A DNA stretch of 64,000 nt from contig CBDDJO010000002.1 in the NCBI GenBank assembly GCA_965229805.1, forward strand, positions 925,811 through 989,810. The letters run 5' to 3'. Made by a program: the position numbers and the translations under genes. The stretch is from Rhodospirillales bacterium (lineage in GTDB: Bacteria; Pseudomonadota; Alphaproteobacteria; Rhodospirillales; Casp-alpha2). Shown here piece after piece: positions 13,010 through 33,705 of this stretch (positions are counted from its first letter, which is position 1; every line of letters starts with the position of its first letter). The notes under the pieces were generated by a model that saw nothing but the letters and a program-made list of their open reading frames with translations, was not told the DNA's origin and made no database searches.

Positions 13010-13140
13010 TCGCAAAATTACAATATTCAGTAACCATTTTGCAAAAATTTTCTTTGCCGCCCTATTCACGCTTCCATTCCGCGCACCGATTGCGCTACCC
13101 AAGCTCAGCAAGCCATCGATACACATAAGGATAATTGCAA

Positions 13141-13710
13141 ATGACCTTGCATGCGCATTTGTTAAAGGATCGTGCCAATAACTTAGCCATTCAGATCGCG
13201 TTGATCTTTCTCGCAACACTGATGATCGCCGTTTCCGCGAAGATCAAGATTCCGTTCTATCCCGTGCCGATGACGATGCAAACGGCCGCGATTATCGCGC
13301 TAGCGCTGGCATTCGGGATGAGGCGTGGCGCCTTGATCGTCGGACTCTACCTTCTGCAGGGCGCGCTAGGACTGCCGGTCTTCGCCGGCACGCCGGAACG
13401 TGGCATCGGACTTGCTTACATGGCGGGGCCGACGGGCGGGTATCTGGCCGGATATTTCATCGCGGCCATTGTCTGCGGCTACCTAGCCGACCGTGGGTGG
13501 AGCAACTCGGTACCGCTGGCGTTCGCCGCGGCGCTGATCGGTACGGCATCCATCTTTGCGCCCGGCCTCCTCTGGCTGGGGATGCTGTTCGGTTGGACCC
13601 CGGGTATTCTGGAAGGCGGTCTTTATCCGTTCCTTTGGGGCGCACTTTTTAAGACCATGCTGGTTGCCTTCATCATCGGCGGTGCTTGGCGCATCGCCCG
13701 CAAGTCGTAG
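13141..13710 (+). CDS. bioY: Biotin transporter BioY
   Basis: BioY-like segments [12 protein letters not shown] and [10 protein letters not shown]. About 189 aa, 6 TM. Confidence 0.85.
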
Positions 13711-13717
13711 GCCAACC

Positions 13718-15250
13718 ATGCAGGAAATCATTGCGGAGCTTGAAGAACGGCGCAAACGCGCGCGGCTCGGCGGCGGCGAGAAACGGATCGAGTCGCAGCA
13801 TGCCAAGGGCAAGCTGACGGCACGTGAACGCATCGATGTGTTTCTGGACGAAGGGTCGTTCGAGGAATGGGACATGTTCGTCGAGCACCGCTGCGTCGAT
13901 TTCGGCATGCAGGAGACGCAAACGCCGGGGGACGGGGTCGTCACCGGCCACGGGACCGTCAACGGGCGTCTGGTATTCGTGTTCAGCCAGGACTTCACGG
14001 TTTTCGGCGGCTCGCTCTCGGAAAGCCACGCCAACAAGATCTGCAAGATCATGGACCAGGCGATGAAAGTCGGCGCGCCGGTGATCGGCCTCAACGATTC
14101 CGGCGGCGCGCGCATTCAGGAAGGGGTCGACAGCCTCGCCGGTTACGCCGAGGTGTTCCAGCGCAACGTGCTGGCATCGGGTGTGGTGCCACAGGTGTCG
14201 CTGATCATGGGGCCCTGTGCCGGCGGCGCCGTCTATTCGCCCTCGATGACGGATTTCATCTTCATGGTCGAGGACACGAGCTACATGTTCGTAACCGGTC
14301 CCGACGTCGTCAAAACCGTGACCCATGAGACGGTGACGGCGGAGGAACTGGGGGGCGCCATCACGCATACCACCAAGTCCGGCGTCGCCGACCGCGCCTT
14401 CGTCAACGATATGGAAGCGTTGCTGTACCTGCGCCGTTTCGTCGACTTCCTGCCCCTGAACAACACGGAACAGCCGCCGGAAAGGCCGACGCCGGACCCG
14501 CACGACCGTATCGAGATGTCGCTGGATACGCTGACCCCGGACAATCCGAACAAGCCCTACGACATGAAGGAGTTGATTACCAAGGTCGTGGACGAGGGCG
14601 ATTTCTTCGAATTGCAGCCGAGCTACGCCGGCAACATCATCATCGGTTTCGCGCGCATGGAAGGCTCGACGGTCGGCATCGTCGCCAACCAGCCGATGGT
14701 GCTGGCGGGCTGCCTGGATATCGATTCGTCCAAGAAGGCGGCGCGGTTCGTGCGTTTCTGCGACTGCTTCAACATCCCGATCATGACGTTCGTCGACGTG
14801 CCGGGGTTCCTGCCGGGGACGTCACAGGAGTTCGGGGGCATCATCAAGCACGGCGCCAAGTTGCTGTATGCCTATGCGGAAGCGACCGTGCCCAAGGTCA
14901 CGGTAATCACCCGCAAGGCTTACGGCGGCGCCTACGACGTCATGAGTTCCAAGCACCTGCGCGGCGACGTGAACTATGCCTGGCCGTCGGCGGAGATCGC
15001 GGTCATGGGCCCGAAAGGCGCGGTCGAGATCATATTCCGTGCCGATATCGGCGACGAGGAGAAGATCGCCAAGCGGACCGAGGAATACCGAACCCGGTTC
15101 GCCAATCCGTTCATCGCCGGGTCGCGCGGTTTCATCGACGACGTGATTATGCCGCATTCGACCCGGAAACGGCTCTGCAAGTCCTTACGGATGCTGAAAA
15201 ACAAGGACCTGCAGAATCCCTGGAAGAAGCACGACAATATTCCGCTCTGA
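13718..15250 (+). CDS. pccB: Propionyl-CoA carboxylase beta (carboxyltransferase) subunit
   Basis: [39 protein letters not shown] start and acyl-CoA carboxyltransferase motifs throughout. The listed ORF has a spurious 5' extension that overlaps bioY. Confidence 0.9.
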
Positions 15251-15262
15251 GGTCCGCTGACG

Positions 15263-17251
15263 ATGTTCAAGAAGATACTGATCGCCAACCGGGGGGAAAT
15301 CGCCTGCCGCGTCATCAAGACGGCCCGCGCCATGGGCATTTCGACGGTCGCCGTCTATTCAGATGCCGATCGCGACGCGTTGCACGTGCAAATGGCCGAC
15401 GAGGCGGTGCACATCGGTGCTGCGCCGACGGCGGAAAGCTATCTGGTGATCGAACGCATCCTGCAGGCGATCGAGGACACCGGCGCCGAGGCGGTGCATC
15501 CGGGCTACGGATTTCTCTCCGAGAACACCAAGTTCGCGCAGGCGCTCGACAAGGCAGGCGTGGCGTTCATCGGGCCGGGCGCCAAGGCGATCACGGCGAT
15601 GGGCGACAAGATCGAGTCCAAGAAGCTCGCCAACAAGGCCAAGGTCTCGACCGTGCCGGGCCACCCGGACGCCATCAAGGACGCCGCCGAGGCGGTCAAG
15701 GTCGCCGACAAGATCGGCTACCCGGTGATGCTGAAAGCATCCGCCGGCGGTGGCGGCAAGGGGATGCGGATCGCGTGGAACGCGGAGGAGGCCAAGGACG
15801 GGTTCCAGCGCGCCACCAACGAGGCCAAGTCCTCGTTCGGCGACGACCGTGTGTTCGTCGAGAAATTCATCGAGGACCCGCGCCACATTGAAATCCAGAT
15901 CATCGCCGACAAGCACGGCAACACGGTATATCTGGGCGAGCGCGAGTGCTCGATCCAGCGCCGCCACCAGAAGGTCATCGAGGAGGCGCCGTCGCCGTTC
16001 CTCGACGAGAAGACCCGAAAGGCCATGGGCGAGCAGGCGGTGGCGCTCGCCGCCGCGGTCGACTACCACTCCGCCGGCACGGTCGAATTCATCGTCGACA
16101 AGGACAAGAATTTCTATTTCCTGGAGATGAACACCCGGCTGCAGGTCGAGCACCCGGTGACCGAATACGTGACCGGCCTGGATCTGGTCGAGCTGATGAT
16201 CCGCGTCGCCGATGGCGAGAAGCTGCCGTTTAAACAGGCCGACATCACGCTCGATGGCTGGGCCATGGAAAGCCGCATCTATGCCGAGGATCCGTTCCGC
16301 AACTTCCTGCCGTCGATCGGCCGTCTTGCGAAATACCGTCCGCCGGTCGAGGAGCAAGACGTGCGCGTTGACACCGGCGTCTTCGAAGGCGGCGAGATTT
16401 CCATGTTCTACGACCCGATGATCGCCAAGCTGATCACCTACGGCCCCGATCGCGATGCCGCCATCGGCCGCATGCAACGTGCGCTCGACGAATATCTGAT
16501 CGAAGGCGTGCAGCACAACATCCCGTTCCTGAACGCGCTGATGACCCATCCGCGTTTCGTCGAAGGCCGGCTGACGACCAACTTTATTGCCGAGGAATAC
16601 CCGGACGGCTTCAATCCCACCGACACCGCGCCCCGGAACCCCAAGGCGTTCGCTGCCGTCGCCGCCGTCATGCACGCGGCCTATCAGGCCCGCGCGGCAC
16701 GGATTTCCGGCCAGCAGGCGGCGCACACCCGTAAGGTGTCGTCGGACTGGGTCGTCGTCTTCGGTGACGGTGAGTACAAGGCCCATGTCGGCGATGCCGA
16801 CGACGGCAAGGTCGAACTCAGCGTCGACGGTGAGGACTTCGTCGTGAAAACCGAATGGCAGTTGGGCGAGCCGCTGTTCCGCGCCGAGATCAACGGCGAG
16901 ACGGTCTGCTTCCAGGTCGCGCGCTCGACGGTGGCCTACATCATCTCGCAGGGCGGTATCCGCGCCGAGGCCTGGGTGCTGTCGCCGCACGTCGCCGAAC
17001 TGAACGCGCTGATGCCTATCAAGGAACCGCCGGATACCTCCAAGATGCTCCTATCACCGATGCCGGGACTTTTGGTCTCGGTCGCCGTCGAGGAAGGCCA
17101 GGAGGTCAAGGCCGGCGAGGAACTGTGCGTTGTCGAAGCGATGAAGATGGAGAACGTGTTGCGCGCCGAACTGGACTGCGTGGTTTCCGCGGTCAAAGCC
17201 GAGGCGGGCGCTAATCTCGCTGTCGATCAGGTCATCCTGGAGTTCGAGTAA
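15263..17251 (+). CDS. pccA: Propionyl-CoA carboxylase alpha subunit (biotin carboxylase plus BCCP)
   Basis: MFKKILIANRGEIACRVI biotin carboxylase N-terminus, ATP-grasp motifs, and a C-terminal EAMKMEN biotinylation motif. Confidence 0.9.
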   Translation: MFKKILIANRGEIACRVIKTARAMGISTVAVYSDADRDALHVQMADEAVHIGAAPTAESYLVIERILQAIEDTGAEAVHPGYGFLSENTKFAQALDKAGVAFIGPGAKAITAMGDKIESKKLANKAKVSTVPGHPDAIKDAAEAVKVADKIGYPVMLKASAGGGGKGMRIAWNAEEAKDGFQRATNEAKSSFGDDRVFVEKFIEDPRHIEIQIIADKHGNTVYLGERECSIQRRHQKVIEEAPSPFLDEKTRKAMGEQAVALAAAVDYHSAGTVEFIVDKDKNFYFLEMNTRLQVEHPVTEYVTGLDLVELMIRVADGEKLPFKQADITLDGWAMESRIYAEDPFRNFLPSIGRLAKYRPPVEEQDVRVDTGVFEGGEISMFYDPMIAKLITYGPDRDAAIGRMQRALDEYLIEGVQHNIPFLNALMTHPRFVEGRLTTNFIAEEYPDGFNPTDTAPRNPKAFAAVAAVMHAAYQARAARISGQQAAHTRKVSSDWVVVFGDGEYKAHVGDADDGKVELSVDGEDFVVKTEWQLGEPLFRAEINGETVCFQVARSTVAYIISQGGIRAEAWVLSPHVAELNALMPIKEPPDTSKMLLSPMPGLLVSVAVEEGQEVKAGEELCVVEAMKMENVLRAELDCVVSAVKAEAGANLAVDQVILEFE

Positions 17252-17277: not shown

Positions 17278-17597
17278 TGAGGTGCCCCTAGTTTGCTAGA
17301 CACCTTCCGTGTTCACATTGTGCTGCTGTCGGACTCAATTGCCGTTGACCGGATTTGCGCTTAGTCATCAGAAAAGCACCACTTAAGTCTGTCAAAAGTG
17401 CCAATTAACGATGTCACAATGCCGAATTCGCACCATTAGAGATGTCTGATGCTGAGCGAGTTTTGCCCTGATTTCATAGCGTTGCCGATCCTCCTCGAAT
17501 TGAATGTATGGCTAGGATACCTGTAGAGTGGTGAATTAAGACTGCTGTGCATGATTTGTTGTTTGATGCAGTCATCTAAAAAATCTCATTAAGAAAC
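17278..17597 (-). mobile_element. 3' terminal fragment of an IS3-family element (here called IS-A): terminal inverted repeat plus decayed transposase C-terminus
   Basis: TGAGGTGCCCCTAGTTTGCTAGAC at 17278 is the inverted counterpart of 37826..37849. The minus strand at 17447..17553 still reads ..HSSL.. / ..PYIQFEEDRQRYEIRAKLAQ.., an IS3 OrfB-type C-terminus broken by a frameshift and a stop. Confidence 0.65.
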
Positions 17598-17822
17598 TGA
17601 CCTTGCCCCCAACGTTGGACCGGCCTGAGGCCGAACTTCCCGCTTTCCGGCAGACTTCCTCGACACTCGTGCCCTCGTCAGCCTGCTTAAAAATTACCGC
17701 AATCGCCTGTTCCGAAAATCTCGACGCTTCATCCTCTTCTCCTCGTCTGCCAGCCAAGGCTAAACGAGAAAATTCTCACTTAGAATAGTCCAATTTCCGG
17801 GGTCAGGTCAGGGGGAGGATCA
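17598..17822 (-). mobile_element. Miniature (225 bp) internally deleted IS3-family derivative retaining both termini
   Basis: Left end TGACCTTGCCCCC and right end GTCAGGGGGAGGATCA resemble the termini of the intact IS at 36375..37592. The internal 61-aa ORF (17572..17757, minus) keeps an OrfA-like HTH remnant (SEQAIAVIFKQADEGTSVEEVCRKAG). Confidence 0.6.
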
Positions 17823-17840
17823 AGTCCTGTTAAAATTTAG

Positions 17841-17856
17841 TTGTCATAGACAACAA
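17841..17856. promoter_or_regulatory. Palindromic operator candidate upstream of marR
   Basis: TTGTCATAGACAACAA (palindrome TTGTC-ATA-GACAA) lies 21 bp before the marR start. It is 15/16 identical to 24534..24549. Confidence 0.5.
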
Positions 17857-17876
17857 AAAATGTTACTCGCTCTTTC

Positions 17877-18383
17877 ATGAATACAAAACAAATAGCACCG
17901 GAATCGCTTCTCCCCGAAGCGCTAGAGGATGTCGAAGCGCATTTTGGCGAACTGGCAACGGTAGGCATTCACCTACTGGCGGCGGCGGCAGCACGCCACG
18001 CTGAAGTCAGTTATCTTGGGCATTTCGGGCTGCCACTATTGGAAGCGCGGACGATGCTGTTACTCGGATCAACCGGGCCGGCCTCACTGAAAACGGTGTG
18101 CAAACAAGCCAACATCGAGAAAGCATACGCGAGCCGATTGATTGAGAAACTGATCCGTAAAGGCCTCGTGCAAAAGGTCGAGGATCCTGATGACCGCAGG
18201 GCCGTCAGGCTTACGCTCACCAAAAAAGGAGCAGCACTCAACGCTGACCTGCAGGCCGAGGTCGTTCAACGTAACGACCACCTGATGTCGGTTCTCAATG
18301 CCGAGGAACAGGACATCTTCTTGCGTTGCCTCTCTAAGTTGACCTGGGCGGCCAGGAGCTTGACCGCCATGGAGAAATCATGA
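17877..18383 (+). CDS. MarR family transcriptional regulator
   Basis: 168 aa with a winged-HTH core (SLKTVCKQANIEKAYASRLIEKLIRKGLVQKVEDPDDRRAVRLTLTKKG). Confidence 0.8.
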   Translation: MNTKQIAPESLLPEALEDVEAHFGELATVGIHLLAAAAARHAEVSYLGHFGLPLLEARTMLLLGSTGPASLKTVCKQANIEKAYASRLIEKLIRKGLVQKVEDPDDRRAVRLTLTKKGAALNADLQAEVVQRNDHLMSVLNAEEQDIFLRCLSKLTWAARSLTAMEKS

Positions 18384-19345
18384 ACGCGATCGACAGCCGA
18401 GATGTGCAGTCGTTGATGACGCGGGCAATTGTCCAGGACATCAAACCTGAGGCAGAAGGGGTTCTCACCATGGAATTGGTGCCTGACGGCGAGGCGGAAT
18501 GGCCCGCCGGCGATGCCGGGGCGCATATAGACGTGGAACTGCCGAACGGCACCGTGCGGCAATACTCCGTCATCAATCCGGGGGAGCCGAACAAGTATGT
18601 GATTTCAGCACTCCGCGCACCTGATAGCCGTGGCGGATCCGAGTATATTCACGATCAACTCTCGAATGGTTCGGTCGTACGTGTCAGCCGACCGAGAAAC
18701 AATTTTCCTCTGATTGCGGATGATCGTCCCGTCTGCCTGATCGGTGGCGGGATAGGTGTGACGCCGCTACTTGCCATGGCACAGACGCTCGCCGGGACCG
18801 ACCGGGAATGGCGGCTCTACTATTGTGTGCGCACGCCGGCCCACGCCGGTTTTGGTCGTCTTCTTGACCGGTTCGGCGACCGGGTACGAATGCATTATGA
18901 TTCCGCAAGCGGGAGTCCGCCCGACCTGCAATCAATGGTCGGAGCTTTTGACGACGCACATGTCTATTGTTGCGGCCCGCAGGCCATGCTGACGGCCTTC
19001 GAGCAATGCACCGCGGGATTCCCCAGCGAGTTAGTTCATATCGAACGTTTTTCTCCTGCAGATATACCAGCCGACTCGTCGGCATTCACAGTGGAACTGG
19101 TCCGCCAGGGGCTGACTTTGGATGTGCCGGAGGACAAGTCGATCCTGGACGTAATTGAGGAATCCGGTGTGCAGGTCGAGAGTTCCTGCCGCATCGGTAT
19201 TTGCGGTACGTGCGAGGCAGCCATCGTCGAGGGCGAGGCCGACCACAAGGACGAATACCTGACCGATGACGAGAAAAAGGAGGGGCGCTCGATGATGATT
19301 TGTTGTTCGCGATCGAAGTCGCCCGTTCTCCGATTGGATATCTGA
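18380..19345 (+). CDS. PDR/VanB-type oxygenase reductase (flavin/NAD plus C-terminal [2Fe-2S])
   Basis: RQYSVIN, GGGIGVTP and the C-terminal CRIGICGTCEAAIVEGEADHKD motif. Overlaps the marR stop by 4 nt. Confidence 0.85.
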   Translation: MNAIDSRDVQSLMTRAIVQDIKPEAEGVLTMELVPDGEAEWPAGDAGAHIDVELPNGTVRQYSVINPGEPNKYVISALRAPDSRGGSEYIHDQLSNGSVVRVSRPRNNFPLIADDRPVCLIGGGIGVTPLLAMAQTLAGTDREWRLYYCVRTPAHAGFGRLLDRFGDRVRMHYDSASGSPPDLQSMVGAFDDAHVYCCGPQAMLTAFEQCTAGFPSELVHIERFSPADIPADSSAFTVELVRQGLTLDVPEDKSILDVIEESGVQVESSCRIGICGTCEAAIVEGEADHKDEYLTDDEKKEGRSMMICCSRSKSPVLRLDI

Positions 19346-19434
19346 GCCCTTACAACGCGTGAATATGACGATTGCCGACCGGAGGCCATACAACCTTCGG
19401 CCCTTAAAACTGCAATAAAATGGGAGTGCACCAA

Positions 19435-20700
19435 ATGACCAGCTTCGCCAGCTTGATTGAACCGGACCGGATACATGGCAGCCTCTATACCGATGCAGCC
19501 ATCTTCTCACGGGAGATGAAGGTCATCTTTCGCGATGGCTGGGCATTCGTCGGTCACGAGTCCGAAGTGCCCGAGCCCGGCGATTTTATCACCCGGACGA
19601 TCGGGTCGGAGCCCGTACTTTTCCTGCGGAACAAGGACGGCGAGGTTCGGGTGTTCTCGAACCGTTGTACCCATCGAGGTAACAGGCTCTGTCATGAAGG
19701 GCGCGGCAAGTTGCGTGGCGGAATTATGTGCACTTACCATGGTTGGGCGTTTTCGTTCGACGGCGATCTACTGGCGGTGCCGTACGAGGGCGGTTTTACA
19801 AAAGCGAAGGAGAACTATTCGCTACGCCAGCCGAGAATGGCGAGCCACCGGGGTTTCGTATTCGCCACGTACAATCCCGATCCAGAGGATTTTTACGATT
19901 ACCTAGGGTATGGGAAGGACCTGATCGATAAGTCGGTGTCAATGTCGCCCGCCGGCAAGGTCCGGTTGGACTCCGGGTGGGTAAAGCATCTTTTCAAGGC
20001 GAACTGGAAGATGCTGCCGGAGAACCAGACGGACGGTTATCACGCAAACCACGTCCATAAGTCTTTTTTGAAGGTTTTCAGTTCACAGTATGACGAATTG
20101 AAAACCAACGAAGAAAAGCGTGTTGGATCCGTCGTCGACTGGGGGAGCGGTCACGCGTCGATTGATGTTTCCGAACGCTACAACGGGCCGCTCCAATGGC
20201 TTGGCTCCAATGAGGAACGCTATCCGGAATACGTCAAAGCCATGAACGAGGCTTACGGGGAAAACGACGCGCGCAAGTTGATGACGGAGGGTCCGCCGCA
20301 TGCGTATATATTCCCGAACCTTTTCCTCGGCGAAGCCAACATCGTCATCATCGAACCGGTCGCGCCCGACCTGTCGGTCCAGCACCATTCCCCGATGCTG
20401 TTGGAAGGCGTGCCGGAGGGGTTGAATGCAAGGATTATCCGCCAGTCGGAAGGAGCGCTGGGTCCGTCCGGGTTGCTGCTCGCCGACGACTCCGTGATCT
20501 CCGAACAACAGCAGATTGCCTTGCAGGGCAAGAGCGGTTGGCTCGAAATCAGCCGGGGCGTCGACCGTGAACGCGTCGAGGACGGAAAGCGGATCGGTCA
20601 CGTCAGCGACGAGACCACGAACCGGGGCTTCTGGCAGCATTATCTTGCCAAGATGAATGGAAGCTCGGTGGAAACCCCCGTCGAACCGGAGCTTGTGTAA
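19435..20700 (+). CDS. Rieske aromatic ring-hydroxylating dioxygenase alpha subunit (IpfA-like context)
   Basis: Rieske motif CTHRGNRLCHEGRGKLRGGIMCTYH and iron motif ENQTDGYHANHVH. The ATG at 19435 is preceded by GGGAG; an alternative ATG lies at 19420. Confidence 0.85.
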   Translation: MTSFASLIEPDRIHGSLYTDAAIFSREMKVIFRDGWAFVGHESEVPEPGDFITRTIGSEPVLFLRNKDGEVRVFSNRCTHRGNRLCHEGRGKLRGGIMCTYHGWAFSFDGDLLAVPYEGGFTKAKENYSLRQPRMASHRGFVFATYNPDPEDFYDYLGYGKDLIDKSVSMSPAGKVRLDSGWVKHLFKANWKMLPENQTDGYHANHVHKSFLKVFSSQYDELKTNEEKRVGSVVDWGSGHASIDVSERYNGPLQWLGSNEERYPEYVKAMNEAYGENDARKLMTEGPPHAYIFPNLFLGEANIVIIEPVAPDLSVQHHSPMLLEGVPEGLNARIIRQSEGALGPSGLLLADDSVISEQQQIALQGKSGWLEISRGVDRERVEDGKRIGHVSDETTNRGFWQHYLAKMNGSSVETPVEPELV

Positions 20701-21203
20701 TGACGACAGCAAACCTTTTGCCAACCGAGGTTTATCGTGAAATCGAGGAATTCGTTTACCGCGAAGCCCGACTGGCCGACGAGTCCCGTTACGGGGAATG
20801 GGAGGAACTGGTCGACGACGACATGATGTATTGGATTCCCAGGGGCGAAGGGGGTTTCGACATGGAAAAGCATGTGTCCGTCATCGCCGATAACCGCAAT
20901 CGGTTGCGCCGCCGTATCAAGCAGCTGCAGACCGGCGCACGCTATGCGCAAGTGCCGGTATCGCCCATGCGCCGCCTCGTCTCTAATATCGAAGCGAAAC
21001 CGATTGCCGACGACGAGTTCAATGTGCAATGCAACTTCGTTCTCTATGAACTGCGGATTCAATCGACGAACAATATCGAAATCTGGCCCGGCCGGATCGA
21101 GTATAAACTTCGCCGCTCGGAAGACGGTTTCAAGATGTTCCTGAAGAAGGTCATGCTCGTGAATGGCGACATGCCCCTGCCTTCGCTGGCATTTCTTCTC
21201 TGA
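20700..21203 (+). CDS. Ring-hydroxylating dioxygenase beta subunit (NTF2/SnoaL fold)
   Basis: 167 aa with a typical beta-subunit N-terminus (EIEEFVYREARLADESRYGEWEELVDDDMMYW). Its start overlaps the alpha-subunit stop. Confidence 0.8.
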   Translation: MTTANLLPTEVYREIEEFVYREARLADESRYGEWEELVDDDMMYWIPRGEGGFDMEKHVSVIADNRNRLRRRIKQLQTGARYAQVPVSPMRRLVSNIEAKPIADDEFNVQCNFVLYELRIQSTNNIEIWPGRIEYKLRRSEDGFKMFLKKVMLVNGDMPLPSLAFLL

Positions 21204-21252
21204 GGCCTTTTGGTCTTGTCTGCAGAGCCACGCAAGCAGCGAAGAGTGACGC

Positions 21253-22422
21253 ATGACTGATGCCTTGGGCGCGGTAGTTGGCCTGGGCATGAGTCCGGTG
21301 TCGCGCAAGAACATAGGCACGACGCGGGACCTCGCGGTCCTGGCTGCACGGAACGCTATTCGGGATGCCGGATTCTTGCCGGGTGACGTCGACGGGCTGC
21401 TTCTCAACCGCAGCCCGTCCGCACCGGTCAAAGATCTGCCAATGAGCATTCTGGCGGATCTCGGTCTGGAAGATCTCGGGGTCCTCGCGTGCATCGACGC
21501 CGAAGGCACGTCGGCAATTCAGATGATCGAATACGCATGCATGTCGATCCGTTCAGGCGCCGCAAAATCAATCGTTTGCATTTTTTCCGATGCCCGCCTG
21601 TCCGGCGGTGGCGGCGCCGAGGCATATGCCAGCACAATGCCGGTGACGGGGCTCACGGACTGGGAAGCGCGGTACGGGTTGTACGGTGCAACGGGCCCAT
21701 ATGGGTTGTTGGCGCAGCGGTATCTGTGGAAATACGGGCTGGACTGCGCGGCGCTGGGGCATGTCGCGATATCCAACCGGCGATGGGCAGAGAACAATCC
21801 TCTGGCCCAATTACGTGAACCGATCACGATGGAAGACTATCTCTCGGCAAGATGGGTCGTAGAGCCTTTCCGGCTGCTCGATTGCGCATATCCGGTAAAT
21901 GGTGCGGCTGCAGTTGTCGTGACGGCACCTGACGTCGCGTCGGACCGTCCATGCGCCCCCGCTTTTATCCATGGCGTCGCACAGGGTCATTCCGGGCAGT
22001 TGGCCGCAAAAGCAACTGAAGACGGCGATGCCGGCGCCGAGCGGGCTGCGCGCGAGGTTTATGCGATGGCCGGCATCCAGGCGGACGATGTGGAAGCCTG
22101 CGAATTCTACGACAATTTCACCTATGTAACGTTGCGCACCCTGGAAGATTACGGACTGTGCCGGCGGGGCGAAGCGGCCGGTTTTGTTGAGGCAGGACAA
22201 ATATCTCCGGGCGGACGTTTGCCGACGAATACCGGTGGAGGTCATCTGTCCGGTTATTATCTTCAGGGAATGACGCCGGTCTCCGAAGCCGTGATCCAAA
22301 TTCGCGGTGACGCCGGGGCGCGTCAGATAGACAAGCGCGATGTCATTCTCGTTACGGGTGTCGGCGGGATGCTGAACTACCATGCAGCGATGATCATGAG
22401 CGCCCAGCGGAGGCTGTCATGA
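21253..22422 (+). CDS. SCPx-type thiolase-like protein (IpfD/Ltp-like)
   Basis: 389 aa with a thiolase-fold layout and a C-terminal NTGGGHLSG segment. It is translationally coupled to a DUF35 gene. Confidence 0.7.
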   Translation: MTDALGAVVGLGMSPVSRKNIGTTRDLAVLAARNAIRDAGFLPGDVDGLLLNRSPSAPVKDLPMSILADLGLEDLGVLACIDAEGTSAIQMIEYACMSIRSGAAKSIVCIFSDARLSGGGGAEAYASTMPVTGLTDWEARYGLYGATGPYGLLAQRYLWKYGLDCAALGHVAISNRRWAENNPLAQLREPITMEDYLSARWVVEPFRLLDCAYPVNGAAAVVVTAPDVASDRPCAPAFIHGVAQGHSGQLAAKATEDGDAGAERAAREVYAMAGIQADDVEACEFYDNFTYVTLRTLEDYGLCRRGEAAGFVEAGQISPGGRLPTNTGGGHLSGYYLQGMTPVSEAVIQIRGDAGARQIDKRDVILVTGVGGMLNYHAAMIMSAQRRLS

Positions 22423-22820
22423 CGGATACCTCTGCGACGGGCGCAAGGATTAGACCGAAAAGCGATTTCGACGACGCGTTTCATGAATATATTGGAAGGC
22501 GTGAATTACGATTGCCGTATCTGCGCGGCTCATCGACGGCTCTCGATCTGAATGCCGCGCCTGCTACCGATATGACGGAGATCGAGTGGCGGTTGGCCTC
22601 CGGCCTGGCCGAGCTTTTTTCATTCGTTGTCTATCGGCAACAGTTCTCGGAGGACCGCGCCGCGCCTTACAACGTTGCCTGGGTGTCGTTAGCGGAAGGA
22701 CCGATGCTGATCTCCACAGTCATAGTGGAGCAGAATTCCGAACTGAGAATTTCGATGCCGTTAAGGGCCGAATTCGACGATCGCGGTGTCCTTGTGTTCC
22801 GACCGGCACAAAATCGCTAA
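22419..22820 (+). CDS. DUF35 OB-fold protein (thiolase partner; Zn-ribbon cysteines absent)
   Basis: 133 aa with an OB-fold-type C-terminal half (YNVAWVSLAEGPMLISTVI...ISMPLRAEFDD). Has a 4-nt overlap with the thiolase-like gene. The protein contains no cysteine at all. Confidence 0.6.
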   Translation: MTDTSATGARIRPKSDFDDAFHEYIGRRELRLPYLRGSSTALDLNAAPATDMTEIEWRLASGLAELFSFVVYRQQFSEDRAAPYNVAWVSLAEGPMLISTVIVEQNSELRISMPLRAEFDDRGVLVFRPAQNR

Positions 22821-22848
22821 CAGGCCTATTTGCGGGAGTTTACAGACG

Positions 22849-24438
22849 ATGATGTTGCCACGTGATTTGCTTCGGAATTGTGCATCGAACTATCCGGACA
22901 GGCCGGCCTACTTCTGGCGTGACGAGACACGGACCTGGCAGGAGATGAAACGACGTTCGGACCGCCTCGCGGGCGCGTTCATGGAGCTTGGAGTCGAAAA
23001 GGGTGATGTCGTCGCCATTCTTGGTCGGGAGTCGCTGGTGATATACGAGCATTTCTTCGCCTGCATGACGCTCGGCGCCGTGCGGGTGGGTCTCAACTGG
23101 CGTTATTCACCCGGCGAAATTCTACATATCCTGCAGGACTCCCGCCCCCGCGTGCTGTTGCTTCAAGCGGATTGTGCTTCGTTGATCGAGACGCTGGAGC
23201 AGGATATTGCCGATCTGGGTACGCGGGTCATTCTTTACGGCGATCCCGGGGGTGCGCCGCTCGAGTACGAGGAAATGATCGATGTTGCCGTCGCACCGTC
23301 GGCGTTGCCTGATCTTGAAAGCGAAGATCCAATGTTCATTTCGTACACCTCCGGTTCTACAGGGCGACCTAAAGGTGTCGTACATACCCAATACTCGTCG
23401 GCATATATCATTTTTCAAAACCTGGTCGGGCGCGGCCTTGCACCGAACGATATATTCCTCCAGGCCTCCGCGTCGTCTTGGATGACCGTACTTTTGAATA
23501 TGCTCGGTCTCGGGAACGGCATGGCCCACGCCATCATGGACGGAACGTTCGAGATCGTGAGTTTTATGAAGCAGATCGACCGGCACCGGGTGACGTCGAT
23601 AATGCTGGTGCCGACGCTGCTTCAGCGCGTTCTGCAGGAGCGTGCGAAGGGCGATTACGATCTGTCATCGATCAGGTTGCTTAACTACGGGTCCTCGCCG
23701 ATTACGCCTGAACTTGCGCGATCCGCTTACGCCGCTTTTGACTGTGATCTGATCCAGAATTACGGCATGACAGAGGGCGGTTGGGTGACGCACCTGTCCG
23801 CAGACGATCATGTGAAGGCCGTCAACCGCGAATACAGCCTGCTGGAATCGGTCGGCCGCCCCGGCGTTTTGACGAGGATATCGATCAGAAACGCCGATGG
23901 TGAGGAACTGCCTCCTGGCGAAGTCGGCGAAGTCTGTCTCAACAGCCCGATGCTGATGAAAGGCTATCTCAATCTTTCGGACGCGACGGCTGAAGCGCTC
24001 AAGGATGGATGGCTGCACACCAACGATCTCGGTTGCCTGAACGAGGAGGGGTATCTTTTCCTCCACGGGCGCAAGAACTTCATGATTATCTCAGGGGCGG
24101 TTAACGTGCAACCGCAGGGTGTCGAACTTGTCATTTCGGAACATCCTTCGGTGTTCGAAGTCGCCGTGGTCGGCGCCCCCCATCCGGATTTGGGCGAGGC
24201 CGTCGTCGCCGTGGTCGTCTGCAAGCCAGGAAAAGAAGAACCGACCCAACGCGACATTGAATCGTTCTGCCTCGCGCGCCTGAGCAAGCTGTCCATCCCG
24301 AAGCACGTATATATCGTTTCGGAACTACCGAAAACGCTGAACGGAAAACTCAATAAGCCGAAGATTATCGAATGGGTGCAAGAGAATCTGCATGCACTTC
24401 CCTGGTTCAGCGTGCAGGGCGCCGCAGGTGGACAATAA
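22849..24438 (+). CDS. AMP-forming acyl-CoA ligase (ANL superfamily)
   Basis: ISYTSGSTGRPKGV AMP-binding motif, plus YGMTEG and WLHTNDLG motifs and a C-terminal LPKTLNGKLNK. Started at the ATG at 22849 within the listed ORF. Confidence 0.85.
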   Translation: MMLPRDLLRNCASNYPDRPAYFWRDETRTWQEMKRRSDRLAGAFMELGVEKGDVVAILGRESLVIYEHFFACMTLGAVRVGLNWRYSPGEILHILQDSRPRVLLLQADCASLIETLEQDIADLGTRVILYGDPGGAPLEYEEMIDVAVAPSALPDLESEDPMFISYTSGSTGRPKGVVHTQYSSAYIIFQNLVGRGLAPNDIFLQASASSWMTVLLNMLGLGNGMAHAIMDGTFEIVSFMKQIDRHRVTSIMLVPTLLQRVLQERAKGDYDLSSIRLLNYGSSPITPELARSAYAAFDCDLIQNYGMTEGGWVTHLSADDHVKAVNREYSLLESVGRPGVLTRISIRNADGEELPPGEVGEVCLNSPMLMKGYLNLSDATAEALKDGWLHTNDLGCLNEEGYLFLHGRKNFMIISGAVNVQPQGVELVISEHPSVFEVAVVGAPHPDLGEAVVAVVVCKPGKEEPTQRDIESFCLARLSKLSIPKHVYIVSELPKTLNGKLNKPKIIEWVQENLHALPWFSVQGAAGGQ

Positions 24439-24530
24439 GGCCGTAAGGCCCGCGCGTTATTGAAAGCGCTTGGGCCCGAACCCGGGACATGTTGAGTTTT
24501 CAGGCTCATGTGGGCGGCAGAGAATGAAAA

Positions 24531-24549
24531 TTGTTGTTATAGACAACAA
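24531..24549. promoter_or_regulatory. Palindromic operator candidate upstream of the island TRAP operon
   Basis: TTGTTGTTATAGACAACAA is a perfect 7-bp-arm palindrome that shares TTGT[CT]ATAGACAACAA with 17841..17856. Confidence 0.5.
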
Positions 24550-24627
24550 ATAATGATAGTTATCATGTTAACTAAATAGAGACACCGGGCTCCTTGTGAG
24601 ATCCAAGGTTCCCATTGGGAAACATTC

Positions 24628-25137
24628 ATGGGCGATATCTTCCAGAGACTCGTGAACGGGTTGAACAACGTACTCCTTGCCGCATCGGGAATTCTTCTAT
24701 TCCTGATGATGCTGCATATCTGTTTGGGTGCCGCTTTCAATCTCGTCCTGCCGACCGTCAACTTGAACACGCTGACGGTTGTCGCCGCTTGGTACATGAT
24801 TGGCGTCACCTTCCTGCCGATGGCGAATACGCAACCGCTCTCAGTGAATATCGCTGCCGGGTTCTTGCCCGATGCCTTTCGCAAGACGGTTCGCTATGTC
24901 GTGGCCTTGCTGTCGGCGATCGCGTTCGGTTTTATCGCGTACCTGACGTTTGAAGAAGCGATGTCTCAGACGCAGATCGGCGAAATGTGGGAAACCTCGA
25001 CCGGGTTCTTCCCCGTCTGGCCGGCGCGCTGGCTTCTACCATGCGCCTTCATAGCCATGTCTTTGCGGGAAATATGCAAGGTTTTCGTGCCCGGGGCCAT
25101 GGAGCAAGCCGTGGCTTCATCGGCGGGGAGCGATTGA
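24628..25137 (+). CDS. TRAP transporter small permease (DctQ-type)
   Basis: 169 aa, 4 TM, directly followed by a DctM-like gene. Confidence 0.8.
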   Translation: MGDIFQRLVNGLNNVLLAASGILLFLMMLHICLGAAFNLVLPTVNLNTLTVVAAWYMIGVTFLPMANTQPLSVNIAAGFLPDAFRKTVRYVVALLSAIAFGFIAYLTFEEAMSQTQIGEMWETSTGFFPVWPARWLLPCAFIAMSLREICKVFVPGAMEQAVASSAGSD

Positions 25138-25138
25138 T

Positions 25139-26446
25139 ATGTCTGGATTGCTCGCCGGGTCGCTCGGATTTCTTGCCGTTATCGTACTGATCCTTCTCGA
25201 GGTCCCGATCGGACTGGCGCTCGGCGGCGTCGCGTTCGTCGGCATGTATGTAATGGTCGGCCCGCAGGCGACGTATGGTGTGGTGGGGGGCTCGTTATAC
25301 GAGTTCGCCGCCAATTGGTCGTTGTCGGCGCTGCCTCTATTCATCCTGATGGGGGCGTTCCTTCAACACTCAGGGCTTGCGTCATCAATTTACCGTGCTG
25401 CCCGTCTTTGGCTCTCTTTTCTGCCGGGTGGGCTTGCGATCGCGACCAATGTCGCCGCGGCCGGATTTGCGGCTACGTCCGGGTCGAGCATGGCGACGGC
25501 GGCGACGATGGCCAGGATTGCCGTGCCGGAAATGCTCAAGGCCGGCTATGACAAGAGTTTGGCCGCGGGTACCGTCGCCAGCGCCGGCACTCTGGGTGCG
25601 TTGATTCCACCAAGTATCCTGATGATCCTATTCGGGGTGCTGGCCGAGGTCTCCATCAGCAAGATGTTGTTGGCGGGCATTTTACCCGGTGTGCTTACGC
25701 TTGCCGTCTATGTCGCGATGATCGTCATCCGGGCTAGTCTCAATCCGAAAATCGCGCCGCGTTATCTGGACAAGGAAGAGATAGGCCAACGCTGGGCTAG
25801 CCTCATCCCGATCTGGCCGCTGCCCGTGCTTTTCTTCGGCATTCTTGGCGGCATCTACGGTGGGTTCGTAACTGCCACGGAAGCTGCGGCTTTGGGCGCG
25901 TTTCTCGCAATGCTGATTGCATTGGCATTCGGCCGGCTGTCGTACTCTGTCCTCAAAAACTCGATCAAGACGACGATGATCAGTACGGCGCAGATTTTCT
26001 TCGTTGCATTGGGCGCGGTGCTATTCACCCGCTTCCTCACATTGACGGGAATGAGCGGGGCATTCACGAGCCTGTTTCTCGATCTGGCCGTGTCGCCCTA
26101 TCTGCTGCTGCTGGCGGTGTCGGTAATGTTCATTATCCTCGGGATGTTTCTCGATCCTCTGGGGGTGATGCTGATCTCCATTCCGATCATCATCCCGATC
26201 TTCACGAACCTCGGTATGGACCTGATTTGGGTCGGAATCATCGTCGTGAAATACGTCGAGATCGGTCTGTTGACCCCACCAATCGGCTTCAATGTCTATG
26301 TCGTGAAAGGCGTCGTGGGCGATGAGATATCTATTGGAACGATATTCAAGGGTGTCGGCTGGTTTCTGTTCTGCGAAGTAATAATCATGACAATCATAAT
26401 TTTTTACCCGGAATTGACTTTGTTTATTCCCAACCAGATGAACTAG
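25139..26446 (+). CDS. TRAP transporter large permease (DctM-type)
   Basis: 435 aa paralog of the protein at 1205..2488 (ALPLFILMGAFL, SGSSMATAATMA). Confidence 0.9.
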   Translation: MSGLLAGSLGFLAVIVLILLEVPIGLALGGVAFVGMYVMVGPQATYGVVGGSLYEFAANWSLSALPLFILMGAFLQHSGLASSIYRAARLWLSFLPGGLAIATNVAAAGFAATSGSSMATAATMARIAVPEMLKAGYDKSLAAGTVASAGTLGALIPPSILMILFGVLAEVSISKMLLAGILPGVLTLAVYVAMIVIRASLNPKIAPRYLDKEEIGQRWASLIPIWPLPVLFFGILGGIYGGFVTATEAAALGAFLAMLIALAFGRLSYSVLKNSIKTTMISTAQIFFVALGAVLFTRFLTLTGMSGAFTSLFLDLAVSPYLLLLAVSVMFIILGMFLDPLGVMLISIPIIIPIFTNLGMDLIWVGIIVVKYVEIGLLTPPIGFNVYVVKGVVGDEISIGTIFKGVGWFLFCEVIIMTIIIFYPELTLFIPNQMN

Positions 26447-26471
26447 GCAAACCAAGATAGGAGGCAACATC

Positions 26472-27587
26472 ATGTCATTTGTAATGAAATTTGGAAAACA
26501 GGCCCTTATGGCCGGGCTTGTATCGGTGGTATCCATTGCCGGCGCGCAACATGCCGATGCCGACGAAATCCGCTATGCGACGCTGGTGTCGAACGGGCAT
26601 ACGGGCGTTCAGGACGCGGTACTTCCGTTCTTCGAACAGGTCAGCAAGGCGACGAACGGCGAACTGACAGGCCGCGTGTTCCCATCGGGCCAGCTTCTGA
26701 ACGCCAGGGGTACGCTGAAGGGCATCAACGAAGGCGTCGCGGATGCCGGACTTGTCATTCCCCATTATGCGGCATCGCAACTCCCGCATGTGCTGGCCCT
26801 TGCGGACATGATCATGATCGGTGAGGACCCTCTGGCGGTGGCCGCGGCGCTCAACGAGACCATCTTGTTCGATTGCGAGACGTGTCTGAAAGAGTATGAA
26901 GCTCAGAACACTTTTCCGCTCGTCTCTTATTCGACGACGAGCTATGTCCTGCAGTGCAACAAACCGCTCAATAGCAAGGAAGACCTCAAAGGCTTGCGCG
27001 TCCGTTCGACCGGGATGTTCAGTGCACGCTTGAGCGCCCTCGGCGCGCTGCCGACGAACCTGGCGTCAAGCGAGTCCGCGCAGGCGCTGCAGCGGGGTCA
27101 GGTGGACTGTGTCCTCGGTCCGATGAGCTGGTTAAAGGCGTACGGCTTACAGGGAAGCGTCAGCCACATCATCAACGTGCCGCTCGGCATGGTGCGTGGT
27201 CTCGGTCTGTTTGTGATTAACAAGAATAAGTGGACCGAAATGCCGAAGGCGCAACGTCAGGCGATGCTCGACGCGGCCCCCGACATGTTGGCCGGCGTCA
27301 TGTTTGGCCAACCCCGCGAAGACCGTGAGCAGATCAAATGGGCCAAGGAAAACAATGTTGATATCTCAGAGGGGGCCGACGAACTGCGCGCCTCCCTGAC
27401 GGTGTCGGACAAGGATGACGATATCCTTGCGGAGCGCGCCGACAAACTCGGTGTGAAAAATATCGATCAGCTCGTCGCCACGTTCAAAAAGAACCTCGAG
27501 AAATGGCAGCGGATTGTCGCCAAGACGGGGGACGACAAAGCGGCATATATCGACGCAGTTAAGCGCGAAATCTATTCGCGCCTGTAA
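26472..27587 (+). CDS. TRAP transporter solute-binding protein (DctP-type, signal peptide)
   Basis: N-terminal signal sequence (ALMAGLVSVVSIAGAQHADA) and a periplasmic binding-protein-like composition. It completes a Q-M-P operon. Confidence 0.7.
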   Translation: MSFVMKFGKQALMAGLVSVVSIAGAQHADADEIRYATLVSNGHTGVQDAVLPFFEQVSKATNGELTGRVFPSGQLLNARGTLKGINEGVADAGLVIPHYAASQLPHVLALADMIMIGEDPLAVAAALNETILFDCETCLKEYEAQNTFPLVSYSTTSYVLQCNKPLNSKEDLKGLRVRSTGMFSARLSALGALPTNLASSESAQALQRGQVDCVLGPMSWLKAYGLQGSVSHIINVPLGMVRGLGLFVINKNKWTEMPKAQRQAMLDAAPDMLAGVMFGQPREDREQIKWAKENNVDISEGADELRASLTVSDKDDDILAERADKLGVKNIDQLVATFKKNLEKWQRIVAKTGDDKAAYIDAVKREIYSRL

Positions 27588-27675
27588 ACGCCAGACAAAC
27601 GATCTGATTAACTTTCGGCGGCACCGCGCCCATCCTTGGGGCGGTGTCGTCACTTTTGGAAGCGGAGTGTGACGC

Positions 27676-28821
27676 ATGGGCCTGTTAAGCGGCATGACCG
27701 TCCTCGAGATCGGCGGAATCGGCCCCGGGCCGTTCTGTGCCATGTTGCTAGCGGATCTGGGCGCAGACGTGCTGCGTATCGAAAAGCCCGGCAAGAAGGC
27801 TGCGGGGTTCGAGGAAAGGCCAAGTGCGAAGATCGTCAGCAGAAACAAGACGGCGTTGACGCTTGATCTGAAATCGCCGGATGCGGTCGAGGTCATCAAG
27901 ATCATGGTGCGCCGGGCGGATGCGATCATCGAAGGGTTTCGCCCGGGCGTAATGGAGCGACTTGGGCTTGGACCGGACGATTTGATGGGTGAGAACCCCG
28001 CGCTTATATACGGCCGCATTACCGGTTGGGGGCAAGCAGGGCCCTGGTCTCAGAGAGCCGGTCACGATATCAACTATCTGGCGGTGGCGGGCGCGCTGAG
28101 CTTGATCGGGCGAAAGGGTGAACCGCCGACAGTGCCGCTCAATTTGATCGGGGATTATGGTGGCGGCGGTATGTACCTTGCGTTTGGTATCCTGTCAGCC
28201 GCTTGGGCGGCCAAAAGTACCGGTAAGGGCCAGGTCGTCGATGCCGCGATGATTGACGGGATTTCATCACTGATGGCGCCACTGTTCGAAATGCGGGCAA
28301 ATGGACAATGGACCCGGCCGCGCGGTGAGAACCTGCTGGATGGCGGCGCGCCTTGGTACGATGTTTACCAGACCAAGGATGAGAAATTTCTGGCAGTCGG
28401 CGCGATCGAACCGAAATTCTACGCGGCGTTTCTGGACGGTCTGGGAATTGATCCGAATAGATTGCCCCCTCAGTACGACCATGCCGGCTGGCCTGTGCTG
28501 CGCGAAACTTTCTCGGACGTCATCCGTCAGCGAACGCGATCGGAATGGATGTCGGTCTTTGACGCACGCGATGCTTGCGTGAGCCCGGTTCTAGGCATCC
28601 ACGAAGCAGCGGCGCACCCTCAGATGAAGTTTCGAGGAACCCAAGTCGAAGTGGATGGGGTTGTCCAGCCAGCGCCTGGCCCCAGGGTTGTTGCCGAAGA
28701 TGCTGATAGCGATGGTGTGCCGGACGACGACACCGCCACGGACCCTGCATCGATACTCCGTGCCTGGGGCGTTTCGGAAGAAGATATTGAAAGATTGAGA
28801 ACTGGTGGTGGCTTGGCGTGA
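27676..28821 (+). CDS. Alpha-methylacyl-CoA racemase (family III CoA-transferase fold, MCR/AMACR type)
   Basis: Matches the recalled M. tuberculosis MCR pattern closely: LSGMTVLEIGGIGPGPFCAMLLADLGADVLRIE, the AGHDINYLA catalytic His region, NLIGDYGGGG catalytic Asp region, GKGQVVDAAMIDG, LLDGGAPWYDVY and AVGAIEPKFYA. Confidence 0.8.
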   Translation: MGLLSGMTVLEIGGIGPGPFCAMLLADLGADVLRIEKPGKKAAGFEERPSAKIVSRNKTALTLDLKSPDAVEVIKIMVRRADAIIEGFRPGVMERLGLGPDDLMGENPALIYGRITGWGQAGPWSQRAGHDINYLAVAGALSLIGRKGEPPTVPLNLIGDYGGGGMYLAFGILSAAWAAKSTGKGQVVDAAMIDGISSLMAPLFEMRANGQWTRPRGENLLDGGAPWYDVYQTKDEKFLAVGAIEPKFYAAFLDGLGIDPNRLPPQYDHAGWPVLRETFSDVIRQRTRSEWMSVFDARDACVSPVLGIHEAAAHPQMKFRGTQVEVDGVVQPAPGPRVVAEDADSDGVPDDDTATDPASILRAWGVSEEDIERLRTGGGLA

Positions 28822-28838
28822 AATGGATCGATGCCGCG

Positions 28839-29351: not shown

Positions 29352-29522
29352 GAAACTCGTTCTTGGTCCTCAATTCCCGCATTTCGTTTGCCAGTTCGGT
29401 TCGACGATAGAAGAGGCGTGGGATGCCACCGGTATACGAACGTCGCGATGCGGCTGCCACCTGTTGCGTTTCAATTATGGCCCGTCGAGCGTCTTATACG
29501 GCGGCATCCTCGCATGACCTGA

Positions 29523-31282: not shown

Positions 31283-31391
31283 GTGAAATCTCGCTGTGCC
31301 TTGCGCGGGTTTGAGTTTGACGTTTAGTAATGAACATGTTAACTACTATACGAAATGAAAGCAATACGATTGTTGGCGAAGGAGTCATCGA

Positions 31392-31796: not shown

Positions 31797-31800
31797 TAAG

Positions 31801-33324: not shown

Positions 33325-33336
33325 TCCGATATCGAC

Positions 33337-33699: not shown

Positions 33700-33705
33700 T
33701 ACGGC

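Follow-up and report, generated by a model that had tools for sequence, protein, structure and literature searches.

A 64,000-nt stretch of Rhodospirillales bacterium contig CBDDJO010000002.1 (positions 925,811 to 989,810; hereafter the window, to which all coordinates refer) carries at 17877-24438 a seven-gene cluster that resembles the ipfABDEF genes for catabolism of ibuprofen. Our analysis indicates that this cluster occupies the leftmost third of a larger block (17826-34574; 16.75 kb), which is probably a self-contained, insertion sequence (IS)-associated island for the catabolism of an aryl-alkanoic acid, in which Ipf-type, coenzyme A (CoA)-dependent removal of the side chain would feed linked meta-cleavage genes. 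The functional unit is thus not confined to the seven genes; it reaches far past 24438, up to 34574. The chances that the substrate is an alpha-methyl acid (a 2-arylpropionate) appear about even, and turnover of ibuprofen itself, one candidate among others, is unlikely.

All seven open reading frames (ORFs) of 17877-24438 lie on the + strand at exactly the coordinates first given for them, and three of their junctions overlap by 1-4 nt, which is an arrangement typical of operons. Pfam domains were called in the seven proteins with E-values of 1e-9 to 1e-78, far beyond chance, and agree with the gene set originally proposed (MarR, reductase, Rieske alpha and beta, thiolase-like protein, DUF35 protein and ligase). 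An earlier note on this DNA had called the cluster ipfABDEF-like from the combination and order of domains. BLASTP comparison with the ipf genes of Rhizorhabdus wittichii MPO218 plasmid pIBU218, our Ipf reference, now places that assignment on direct similarity of 34-61% identity: the alpha subunit is 52% identical to IpfA (446 bits), the beta subunit 61% to IpfB (217 bits), the thiolase-like protein 51% to IpfD and the DUF35 protein 34% to IpfE, all near full length, while the ligase is 47.5% identical to IpfF over 522 aa. The order A-B-D-E-F is common to the window and pIBU218. Two start sites deserve comment. The ligase probably starts at ATG 22849 (529 aa) rather than at GTG 22786, because similarity to IpfF sets in at residue 22-23 of the ORF as listed, the ATG is preceded by a GGGAG, and 529 aa are called on related contigs; for the alpha subunit, 19435 (421 aa) is a possible alternative start to 19420.

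By sequence, the oxygenase subunits are nearer to IpfA and IpfB than to any other characterised oxygenase. The Rieske motif of the alpha subunit is intact (C83-H85...C103-H106) and the iron-binding residues Asp205, His208 and His213 are present. The best solved structure for alpha is IadD (7yls), which at 29% identity is the nearest other characterised oxygenase. The reductase is, from its domain layout, of class IA (the phthalate dioxygenase reductase, PDR, or VanB type), with an N-terminal FNR-like flavin/NAD module (NAD_binding_1 at residues 120-207) and a C-terminal plant-type 2Fe-2S domain (Fer2 at 242-311). It aligns end to end with phthalate dioxygenase reductase itself (2pia; 219 bits, E=9e-64), and the next closest structure is IadC (7ylr; E=3e-48). 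The suggestion that a fused PDR-type reductase replaces separate components is therefore borne out, as the operon encodes one FNR-Fer2 protein and not the three-component electron transfer of the sphingomonads, which use a separate reductase (IpfH) and ferredoxin (IpfI). In those bacteria ipfH and ipfI lie apart from ipfAB, and the electron-transfer set is accessory to the core. A second two-component Rieske system is located at 4389-6873 (+) of the window, where a Rieske/LigXa_C-like oxygenase (475 aa) is followed by a PDR-type FNR-Fer2 reductase (331 aa) and adjoined by a GMC oxidoreductase (6870-8492, -).

Among proteins of solved structure, Ltp2, an aldolase that acts on steroid side chains (6ok1; 182 bits), is closest to the IpfD-like protein. 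In Ltp2, Tyr294 of the YDHF motif is the catalytic base, Tyr344 is the catalytic acid, the His provides the oxyanion hole and a Gly replaces the thiolase nucleophile (PMC12329534). When six IpfD-family proteins are aligned with Ltp2, each retains both tyrosines (in the window protein, the Tyr of FYDNF and a Tyr of GYYLQGM) and the position of the thiolase nucleophile is Gly in all six family members, none of which has the nucleophilic Cys. The likeness would extend to the chemistry. Ltp2 converts a tertiary beta-hydroxy-alpha-methylacyl-CoA to a ketone and propionyl-CoA, with a DUF35 protein (ChsH2) as partner; ipso/ortho dihydroxylation of an aryl-alkanoyl-CoA would likewise yield a tertiary beta-hydroxyacyl-CoA, for which retro-aldol cleavage would be the natural reaction. 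We thus predict that the IpfD enzymes are Ltp2-like retro-aldolases and not thiolases, in agreement with the wording 'retro-aldolase' used for the cleavage enzyme of the ipf pathway (PMC9195938). Assignment to the BbsAB thiolases was rejected, as the NCBIfam scores fall far below the cut-offs. The window pair differs from Ltp2-ChsH2 in having YDNF for YDHF, in a DUF35 protein that lacks the four-cysteine zinc finger and in its predicted substrate, a ring dihydrodiol and not a steroid. Neither a four-cysteine nor a Cys3His finger was found in the window protein (0 Cys) or in IpfE (2 Cys), which suggests that some members of the family have lost the canonical zinc ribbon; the homologues of WDL1, L004 and L010 (Chelativorans) retain 3-4 cysteines. 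(L numbers denote the loci that we compared.) The IpfE-type DUF35 protein of L003 (12977-13333) also has 0 Cys, and the IpfE-type gene of L001 lies at 8569-8967.

Pairs of this kind also occur elsewhere. Beside the ipf-like/TRAP cluster of L012, region 694-7120 encodes a second thiolase-like protein with a zinc-finger DUF35 partner, an ADP-forming CoA ligase, an HpcH/HpaI aldolase, a PEP-mutase-family protein and an intradiol dioxygenase. On the Rhodococcus qingshengii TG-1 plasmid NZ_CP077420.1 (L101), at 26-35 kb of the record, a thiolase-like/OB-fold pair is accompanied by two ligases, beta-oxidation genes and two family III CoA-transferases, one of them MCR-like at 48%. This cluster contains no Rieske oxygenase, so we do not count it as the same system; it may represent a different CoA-dependent side-chain pathway.

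Past the ligase, genes on the + strand encode a tripartite ATP-independent periplasmic (TRAP) transporter. That the island has its own TRAP importer, as had been proposed, is upheld by related loci, in which DctQMP is co-conserved with the ipf-like module. Orthologues of DctP with at least 51% identity are rare (seven clusters) and adjoin an ipf-like core in five of the five contexts examined, namely the window lineage, L010, L011, L012 and L013; a homologue at 47% does not adjoin one. Matches to solved DctP structures were too weak to be used for inferring a substrate (about 57 bits, with 4pgn and 4pgp, which we take to be indole-acid binders, among the nearest).

The last gene of the dctQMP unit encodes a predicted alpha-methylacyl-CoA racemase (MCR/AMACR) of the family III CoA-transferase fold. 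It is separated from dctP by an 88-nt gap in which no terminator is predicted. The protein is 52% identical to Mycobacterium tuberculosis MCR (1x74; E=4.5e-111), an entry whose name itself includes the label 2-arylpropionyl-CoA epimerase. Equivalents of His126, Asp127, Asp156 and Glu241 are all present, and the motifs AGHDINY, GDYGGG and AIEP align with those of MCR. MCR/AMACR enzymes epimerise 2-arylpropionyl-CoAs, ibuprofenoyl-CoA among them, and the presence of the racemase argues for an alpha-methyl-branched, chiral substrate. Unlike the M. tuberculosis and AMACR enzymes, the window homologue is encoded at the end of a transcription unit for aryl-acid catabolism. Two unrelated ipf-like cores likewise have an MCR orthologue with intact motifs nearby: that of L092 comes immediately after the ligase gene, on the same strand, and that of L051 is found 3.7 kb downstream. 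The enrichment of racemase genes near ipf-like cores is suggestive only, set against a background of about 2 per Mb in some replicons; from these sequence data a link to the ipf-like pathway is plausible. We found no mention of a racemase in the searchable literature that discusses ipf genes. Further family III CoA-transferases are encoded elsewhere in the window, at 47120-48091 (-) and 54402-55607 (-), one of which matches profile positions 102-366 only and is possibly truncated, and at 57880-62084 (+), where a duplicated CoA_transf_3 domain is present in each of two proteins of unusual length (667 and 734 aa). Their neighbours include genes for an electron-transfer flavoprotein (ETF), ETF-ubiquinone oxidoreductase, an acyl-CoA dehydrogenase, MmgE/PrpD and a 2-oxoglutarate-dehydrogenase-E1-like protein.

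A downstream meta-cleavage pathway had also been noted; it is present, and can be refined to the homoprotocatechuate type, as HpaR and HpaE pass their NCBIfam equivalog cut-offs. The HpaF-like protein, the HpaG-like protein and the aldolase all score below theirs. The set shares with the Escherichia coli hpa pathway HpaR and HpaE at equivalog level and homologues of HpaF, of the C-terminal half of HpaG and of the 'HpaI-NOT-DapA' aldolase; it differs in that a two-subunit LigAB dioxygenase takes the place of canonical HpaD and in that neither the HpaBC hydroxylase nor a recognisable HpaH was found in block 17826-34574. A gene for a cis-diol dehydrogenase is likewise not present in this block. 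The homoprotocatechuate-type pathway processes ring-fission products that are substituted on the formyl-bearing carbon, and by our reading of the chemistry the same substitution pattern would arise from a 4-substituted catechol, 4-isobutylcatechol from ibuprofen being an example. The lower pathway points to a para-substituted ring, and the ibuprofen cleavage product named in PMC9195938 fits the pattern of a 4-substituted catechol.

Two palindromic motifs connect three promoter regions of the block. Motif A, GTTGT(C/T)ATAGACAAC, lies upstream of marR1 and of dctQ, while motif B, TAGTTA-N6-TAACTA, is shared by the region upstream of dctQ and the divergent hpa promoter. Motif B is well supported statistically (0 expected), motif A modestly. 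A site similar to motif B also precedes hpaD-dctQMP in Chelativorans and Nitratireductor plasmids (L010 and L011).

Relatives of the alpha subunit are numerous, with more than 1,200 in the database at E<1e-30; one metagenome cluster is 97% identical and no other exceeds 60%. We surveyed 78 metagenome loci with alpha identities of 46-57%, in 40 of which the sequence extends 4.5 kb or more downstream of alpha. Both a thiolase-like gene and a ligase gene were present in 37 of these 40, usually in the order A-B-D-(E)-F and in five cases as A-B-F-D-E. The ipf-type five-gene module is thus a widespread conserved operon, a recent survey having implied otherwise (PMC11892951).

The most informative relatives are plasmid clusters of Chelativorans sp. 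AA-79 (L010) and Nitratireductor thuwali (L011), the ipf-like cores of which are 45-55% identical to that of the window. They also contain orthologues of the accessory genes: MarR (39%, in Chelativorans at the position equivalent to MarR1), the PDR reductase (51%), DctQ, DctM and DctP (41, 59 and 53%), HpaR (41%) and HpaE (71%). The same MarR, PDR-reductase and DctQMP arrangement is found, by Pfam content, on a contig of Amorphus sp. MBR-141 (L013) and on a metagenome contig (L012). The gene order of these four clusters differs from that of the window, being [hpaD]-dctQMP-marR-reductase-[alpha/beta hydrolase]-A-B-ligase-thiolase-DUF35, and in the Chelativorans and Nitratireductor plasmids hpaD heads a co-directional run that extends through dctQMP, marR and the reductase gene to the ipf-like genes. 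Ring cleavage is assigned to a VOC-type HpaD in L010-L013, whereas the window has LigAB, and none of the four contains the racemase. A literature search returned nothing on Chelativorans AA-79.

By blastn against related contigs, many metagenome contigs contain block 17826-34574 with about 95% nucleotide identity, and at least three of them that include both of its ends (L015-L017) have identical borders. To the left of the constant left border, at least five different flanks occur (L005/L006 and L015-L019), with IS66, an IS6-type element, a serine recombinase/resolvase or other genes. On the right, the related contigs share a conserved junction, via an IS, to a chromosomal dctPQM region. The proposal that the island is IS-bounded is borne out in part. 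The right side has an intact IS3 element and a relic, and the left flanks vary in related contigs; on the left side of the window itself, just one arm of a 30-nt inverted repeat and a decayed orfA are present. The repeat arms are 83% complementary and 20.5 kb apart. The intact IS3 element has apparently inserted into the second IS3 relic. No target-site duplication was identified for the block.

Between the right border and the conserved dctPQM region, the window contains a specific insert (34575-38283) that comprises an alpha/beta hydrolase gene (34875-35780), a 78-aa ORF without a family match (36059-36295), the IS3 element and the IS3 relic; related contigs have at this position a single gene for a 348-aa rve_3 transposase. 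The hydrolase was considered as the meta-cleavage hydrolase of the block and discarded, as it is absent from L015-L020; it is also not orthologous to the hydrolase of the Hyphomicrobiales operons. Directly to the left of the island, 11588-17251 encodes pccR/ScfR, pccB and pccA (propionyl-CoA carboxylase). Since propionyl-CoA is a product of Ipf chemistry, and pccB is of importance in MPO218 according to published work, this adjacency is suggestive; related contigs, however, share nothing left of 17826, and the genes were rejected as a feature of the island. Further left is an organosulfonate gene set (2537-3274, 8592-10304 and 10489-11442) consisting of a TauE sulfite exporter, the sulfoacetaldehyde acetyltransferase Xsc (695 bits against a cut-off of 620) and phosphate acetyltransferase; a 405-aa ORF on the opposite strand (8499-9716) is probably spurious.

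The described ipf systems are those of Sphingomonas Ibu-2, R. wittichii MPO218 (pIBU218) and Sphingopyxis granuli RW412, with ipfABDEF(HI). They resemble the window in their IS association and in having meta-cleavage genes nearby, and their pathway chemistry has been described (PMC9195938, PMC11892951). The window differs in being flanked by IS3-type elements instead of IS6100 and in bringing together MarR, the TRAP importer, the MCR-type racemase and the hpa-type LigAB pathway on one 16.7-kb stretch. Its host is not a sphingomonad, and related genomes are labelled Rhodospirillales. The window does not correspond to a known plasmid: a low-stringency search of plasmid DNA gave just weak patches of 65-71%, and the same search located the ipf region of pIBU218 and its S. 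granuli twin.

From the observed gene content, homology, conservation of catalytic residues, synteny and co-conservation of parts we infer the following route, including its order of CoA activation before oxygenation, its regulation and the nature of its substrate. The acid would be imported by the DctPQM TRAP transporter and activated to an aryl-alkanoyl-CoA by the IpfF-like ligase. If the acid is alpha-methyl-branched, the MCR-type racemase would then interconvert the 2R and 2S epimers. The two-component Rieske oxygenase, composed of the PDR-type reductase and the IpfAB-like subunits, is predicted to dihydroxylate the ipso and ortho carbons of the ring to give a beta-hydroxyacyl-CoA, in which the IpfD-like Ltp2-type retro-aldolase and its zinc-free DUF35 partner would cut the bond between the ring and C-alpha. 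The expected products are propionyl-CoA (or acetyl-CoA) and a dienone that would tautomerise to a catechol. This catechol, probably 4-substituted, would be opened by LigAB, and HpaE, the HpaF-like and HpaG-like proteins and the aldolase would process the product. MarR1 and HpaR may control the three transcription units through the two shared palindromic operators.

Several observations weigh against this interpretation. IpfF accepts phenylacetate, tolylacetates, 2-phenylpropionate and ibuprofen (PMC9956071); at 47-52% identity, as the sequences stand, the substrate range of the Ipf proteins is not transferable to those of the window. The active-site details of the predicted aldolase depart from Ltp2, as the window protein has Asn, and IpfD (YDAF) and other members have Ala, in place of the His of YDHF, and the DUF35 partner, having no cysteine, has no zinc-binding cysteines. 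From its sequences the lower pathway looks homoprotocatechuate-specific, and we know of no common natural aryl-alkanoate that yields homoprotocatechuate on loss of its side chain. Neither the Hyphomicrobiales versions nor, over the 16 kb examined, pIBU218 contains the racemase; its recurrence amounts to two cases in 553 kb of flanks, and the background in Burkholderiales reaches five copies in 2.6 Mb. Motif A, when up to 3 mismatches are allowed, is weakly above chance, with 4 matches against 0.84 expected and 4 reached in one of 100 shuffles. Finally, oxygenation precedes CoA ligation in the related iad system.

One alternative is that the block is a patchwork in which the ipf-like operon, the TRAP and racemase genes and the hpa genes serve different substrates and merely travel together on a mobile element, the TRAP and hpa genes acting, for example, on hydroxyphenylacetates and the racemase on branched fatty acids. 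The equivalog-level matches of HpaR and HpaE to the classical homoprotocatechuate pathway and the link that motif B makes between the TRAP and hpa promoters would fit such an arrangement, as would the lack of the racemase in the Hyphomicrobiales versions and the abundance of MCR paralogues in some genomes. The DctP orthologues nevertheless adjoin the ipf-like core in every context examined, motif A is common to the marR1 and dctQ promoters, the Chelativorans run places hpaD at the head of dctQMP and the ipf-like genes, and the block has no HpaBC to feed the hpa genes independently. Because the parts are co-conserved and the motifs shared, we consider a patchwork quite unlikely.

A second alternative retains a single pathway and reverses its first steps, such that the Rieske oxygenase acts on a free aryl-acetate, and CoA activation of the oxidised acid by the ligase and removal of acetyl-CoA by the thiolase-like enzyme follow. 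The precedent is the Variovorax iad operon for auxin degradation (IadC, IadDE, IadF and IadG), which has a PDR-like reductase (IadC), a Rieske oxygenase (IadDE), an AMP-ligase and a thiolase-family enzyme, annotated as an acetyl-CoA acetyltransferase, that is proposed to remove acetyl-CoA, and for which oxygenation of the free acid is the proposed first step. The window shares this architecture, the MarR regulator included, and IadD and IadC are the structures that its alpha subunit and, after PDR itself, its reductase match best. The alpha subunit is, however, only 29% identical to IadD, compared with 52% to IpfA, the gene order is that of ipfABDEF, and the downstream genes are for catechol/homoprotocatechuate meta-cleavage and not for catabolism of anthranilate, the product of the iad pathway. 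The much closer similarity to IpfA and the catechol-type lower pathway make an Iad-like order very unlikely. An ordinary ring-hydroxylating dioxygenase for free acids (of the benzoate/toluate, phthalate or phenylpropionate type) beside unrelated beta-oxidation genes, the grouping that would have contradicted the ipf-like call, is effectively excluded by sequence, for while BenA, HcaE and AntA (benzoate, phenylpropionate and anthranilate dioxygenases) are by name the top NCBIfam matches, they reach just 144-173 bits against cut-offs of 670-830, the block has no cis-diol dehydrogenase gene and the thiolase-like, DUF35 and ligase genes stay beside alpha and beta in the 37 distant loci.

Table 1. 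Features of the island and its borders (window coordinates; functions are predictions from sequence).
Feature	Position	Strand	Remarks
30-nt inverted-repeat arm, likely IS end	17278-17307		27 nt past pccA stop; partner 37820-37849
Decayed IS3-family OrfA fragment (RFSEQAIAVIFKQADEGTSVEEVCRKAG)	17590-17770	-	Six-frame translation; by-eye resemblance to IS3 OrfA, no profile score
Motif A copy 1, palindrome GTTGTCATAGACAAC	17840-17854		22 nt upstream of marR1; candidate MarR operator
MarR1, MarR-family regulator	17877-18383	+	Pfam MarR (PF01047/PF12802)
PDR-type reductase	18380-19345	+	Pfam NAD_binding_1, then C-terminal Fer2
IpfA-like Rieske oxygenase alpha	19420-20700	+	Pfam Rieske and Ring_hydroxyl_A
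IpfB-like oxygenase beta	20700-21203	+	Pfam Ring_hydroxyl_B; 61% to IpfB
IpfD-like SCP-x/thiolase-fold protein, predicted retro-aldolase	21253-22422	+	Pfam Thiolase_C_1 only, without Thiolase_N
IpfE-like DUF35/OB-fold partner	22419-22820	+	Pfam OB_ChsH2_C (DUF35); overlaps IpfD-like gene by 4 nt
IpfF-like aryl-alkanoate-CoA ligase, predicted	22849-24438	+	Pfam AMP-binding and AMP-binding_C; listed ORF from GTG 22786
Motif A copy 2 GTTGTTATAGACAAC, then motif B copy 1 TAGTTATCATGTTAACTA	24533-24574		Upstream of dctQ
TRAP transporter DctQ	24628-25137	+	
TRAP transporter DctM	25139-26446	+	
TRAP transporter DctP	26472-27587	+	
Alpha-methylacyl-CoA racemase (MCR/AMACR) homologue, predicted	27676-28821	+	Last gene of + strand unit
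HpaR, homoprotocatechuate operon regulator, MarR family	28839-29351	-	TIGR02337, 143 bits, above cut-off of 121
FAA-hydrolase-family protein like C-terminal half of HpaG	29523-30380	-	Listed ORF to 30485; model 162 bits against cut-off of 276
DapA-family class I aldolase	30377-31282	-	Best model TIGR02313 'HpaI-NOT-DapA', 279 bits, below cut-off of 397
Motif B copy 2 TAATGAACATGTTAACTA	31328-31345		Divergent hpa promoter region
HpaF-like 5-carboxymethyl-2-hydroxymuconate (CHM) isomerase homologue	31392-31796	+	93 bits against cut-off of 215; PF02962 on related contigs
HpaE, 5-carboxymethyl-2-hydroxymuconate semialdehyde dehydrogenase	31801-33324	+	TIGR02299, 783 bits, above cut-off of 638
LigA/LigB two-subunit class III extradiol dioxygenase	LigA 33337-33699, LigB 33706-34524	+	
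IS3 element, intact	orfB 36409-37224, orfA 37257-37559	-	
Second IS3 relic	orfA 37575-37790	-	Ends in inverted repeat 37820-37849

To our knowledge, no bacterial route for ibuprofen other than Ipf-type side-chain removal has been defined genetically, and studies of it are confined to three sphingomonads with nearly identical genes. The island described here gives an Ipf-type core a different setting with regard to electron transfer, transport, stereochemistry and lower pathway, and is not categorically new. It points to a distinct alphaproteobacterial lineage in which a single-protein reductase, a TRAP importer of its own and a lower pathway of the homoprotocatechuate type accompany the five-gene core, and to this combination the lineage of the window adds a 2-methylacyl-CoA racemase, a candidate for the handling of two enantiomers. 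More tentatively, the island may encode a complete pathway for both enantiomers of chiral 2-arylpropionic acids, natural compounds or profen drugs, in which the racemase feeds an enantioselective Rieske oxygenase and retro-aldolase, and may represent a second, IS-spread Ipf lineage outside the sphingomonads with its own PDR-type reductase, TRAP importer and hpa set. If this is true, the racemase would be the missing component behind the bacterial use of both enantiomers of 2-arylpropionic acids. The eleven co-directional genes of 17877-28821 span about 11 kb, a compact set for testing the degradation of aryl-alkanoates and profens in a heterologous host, and should be useful both to work on the biodegradation of these compounds and to the enzymology of DUF35-associated aldolases.

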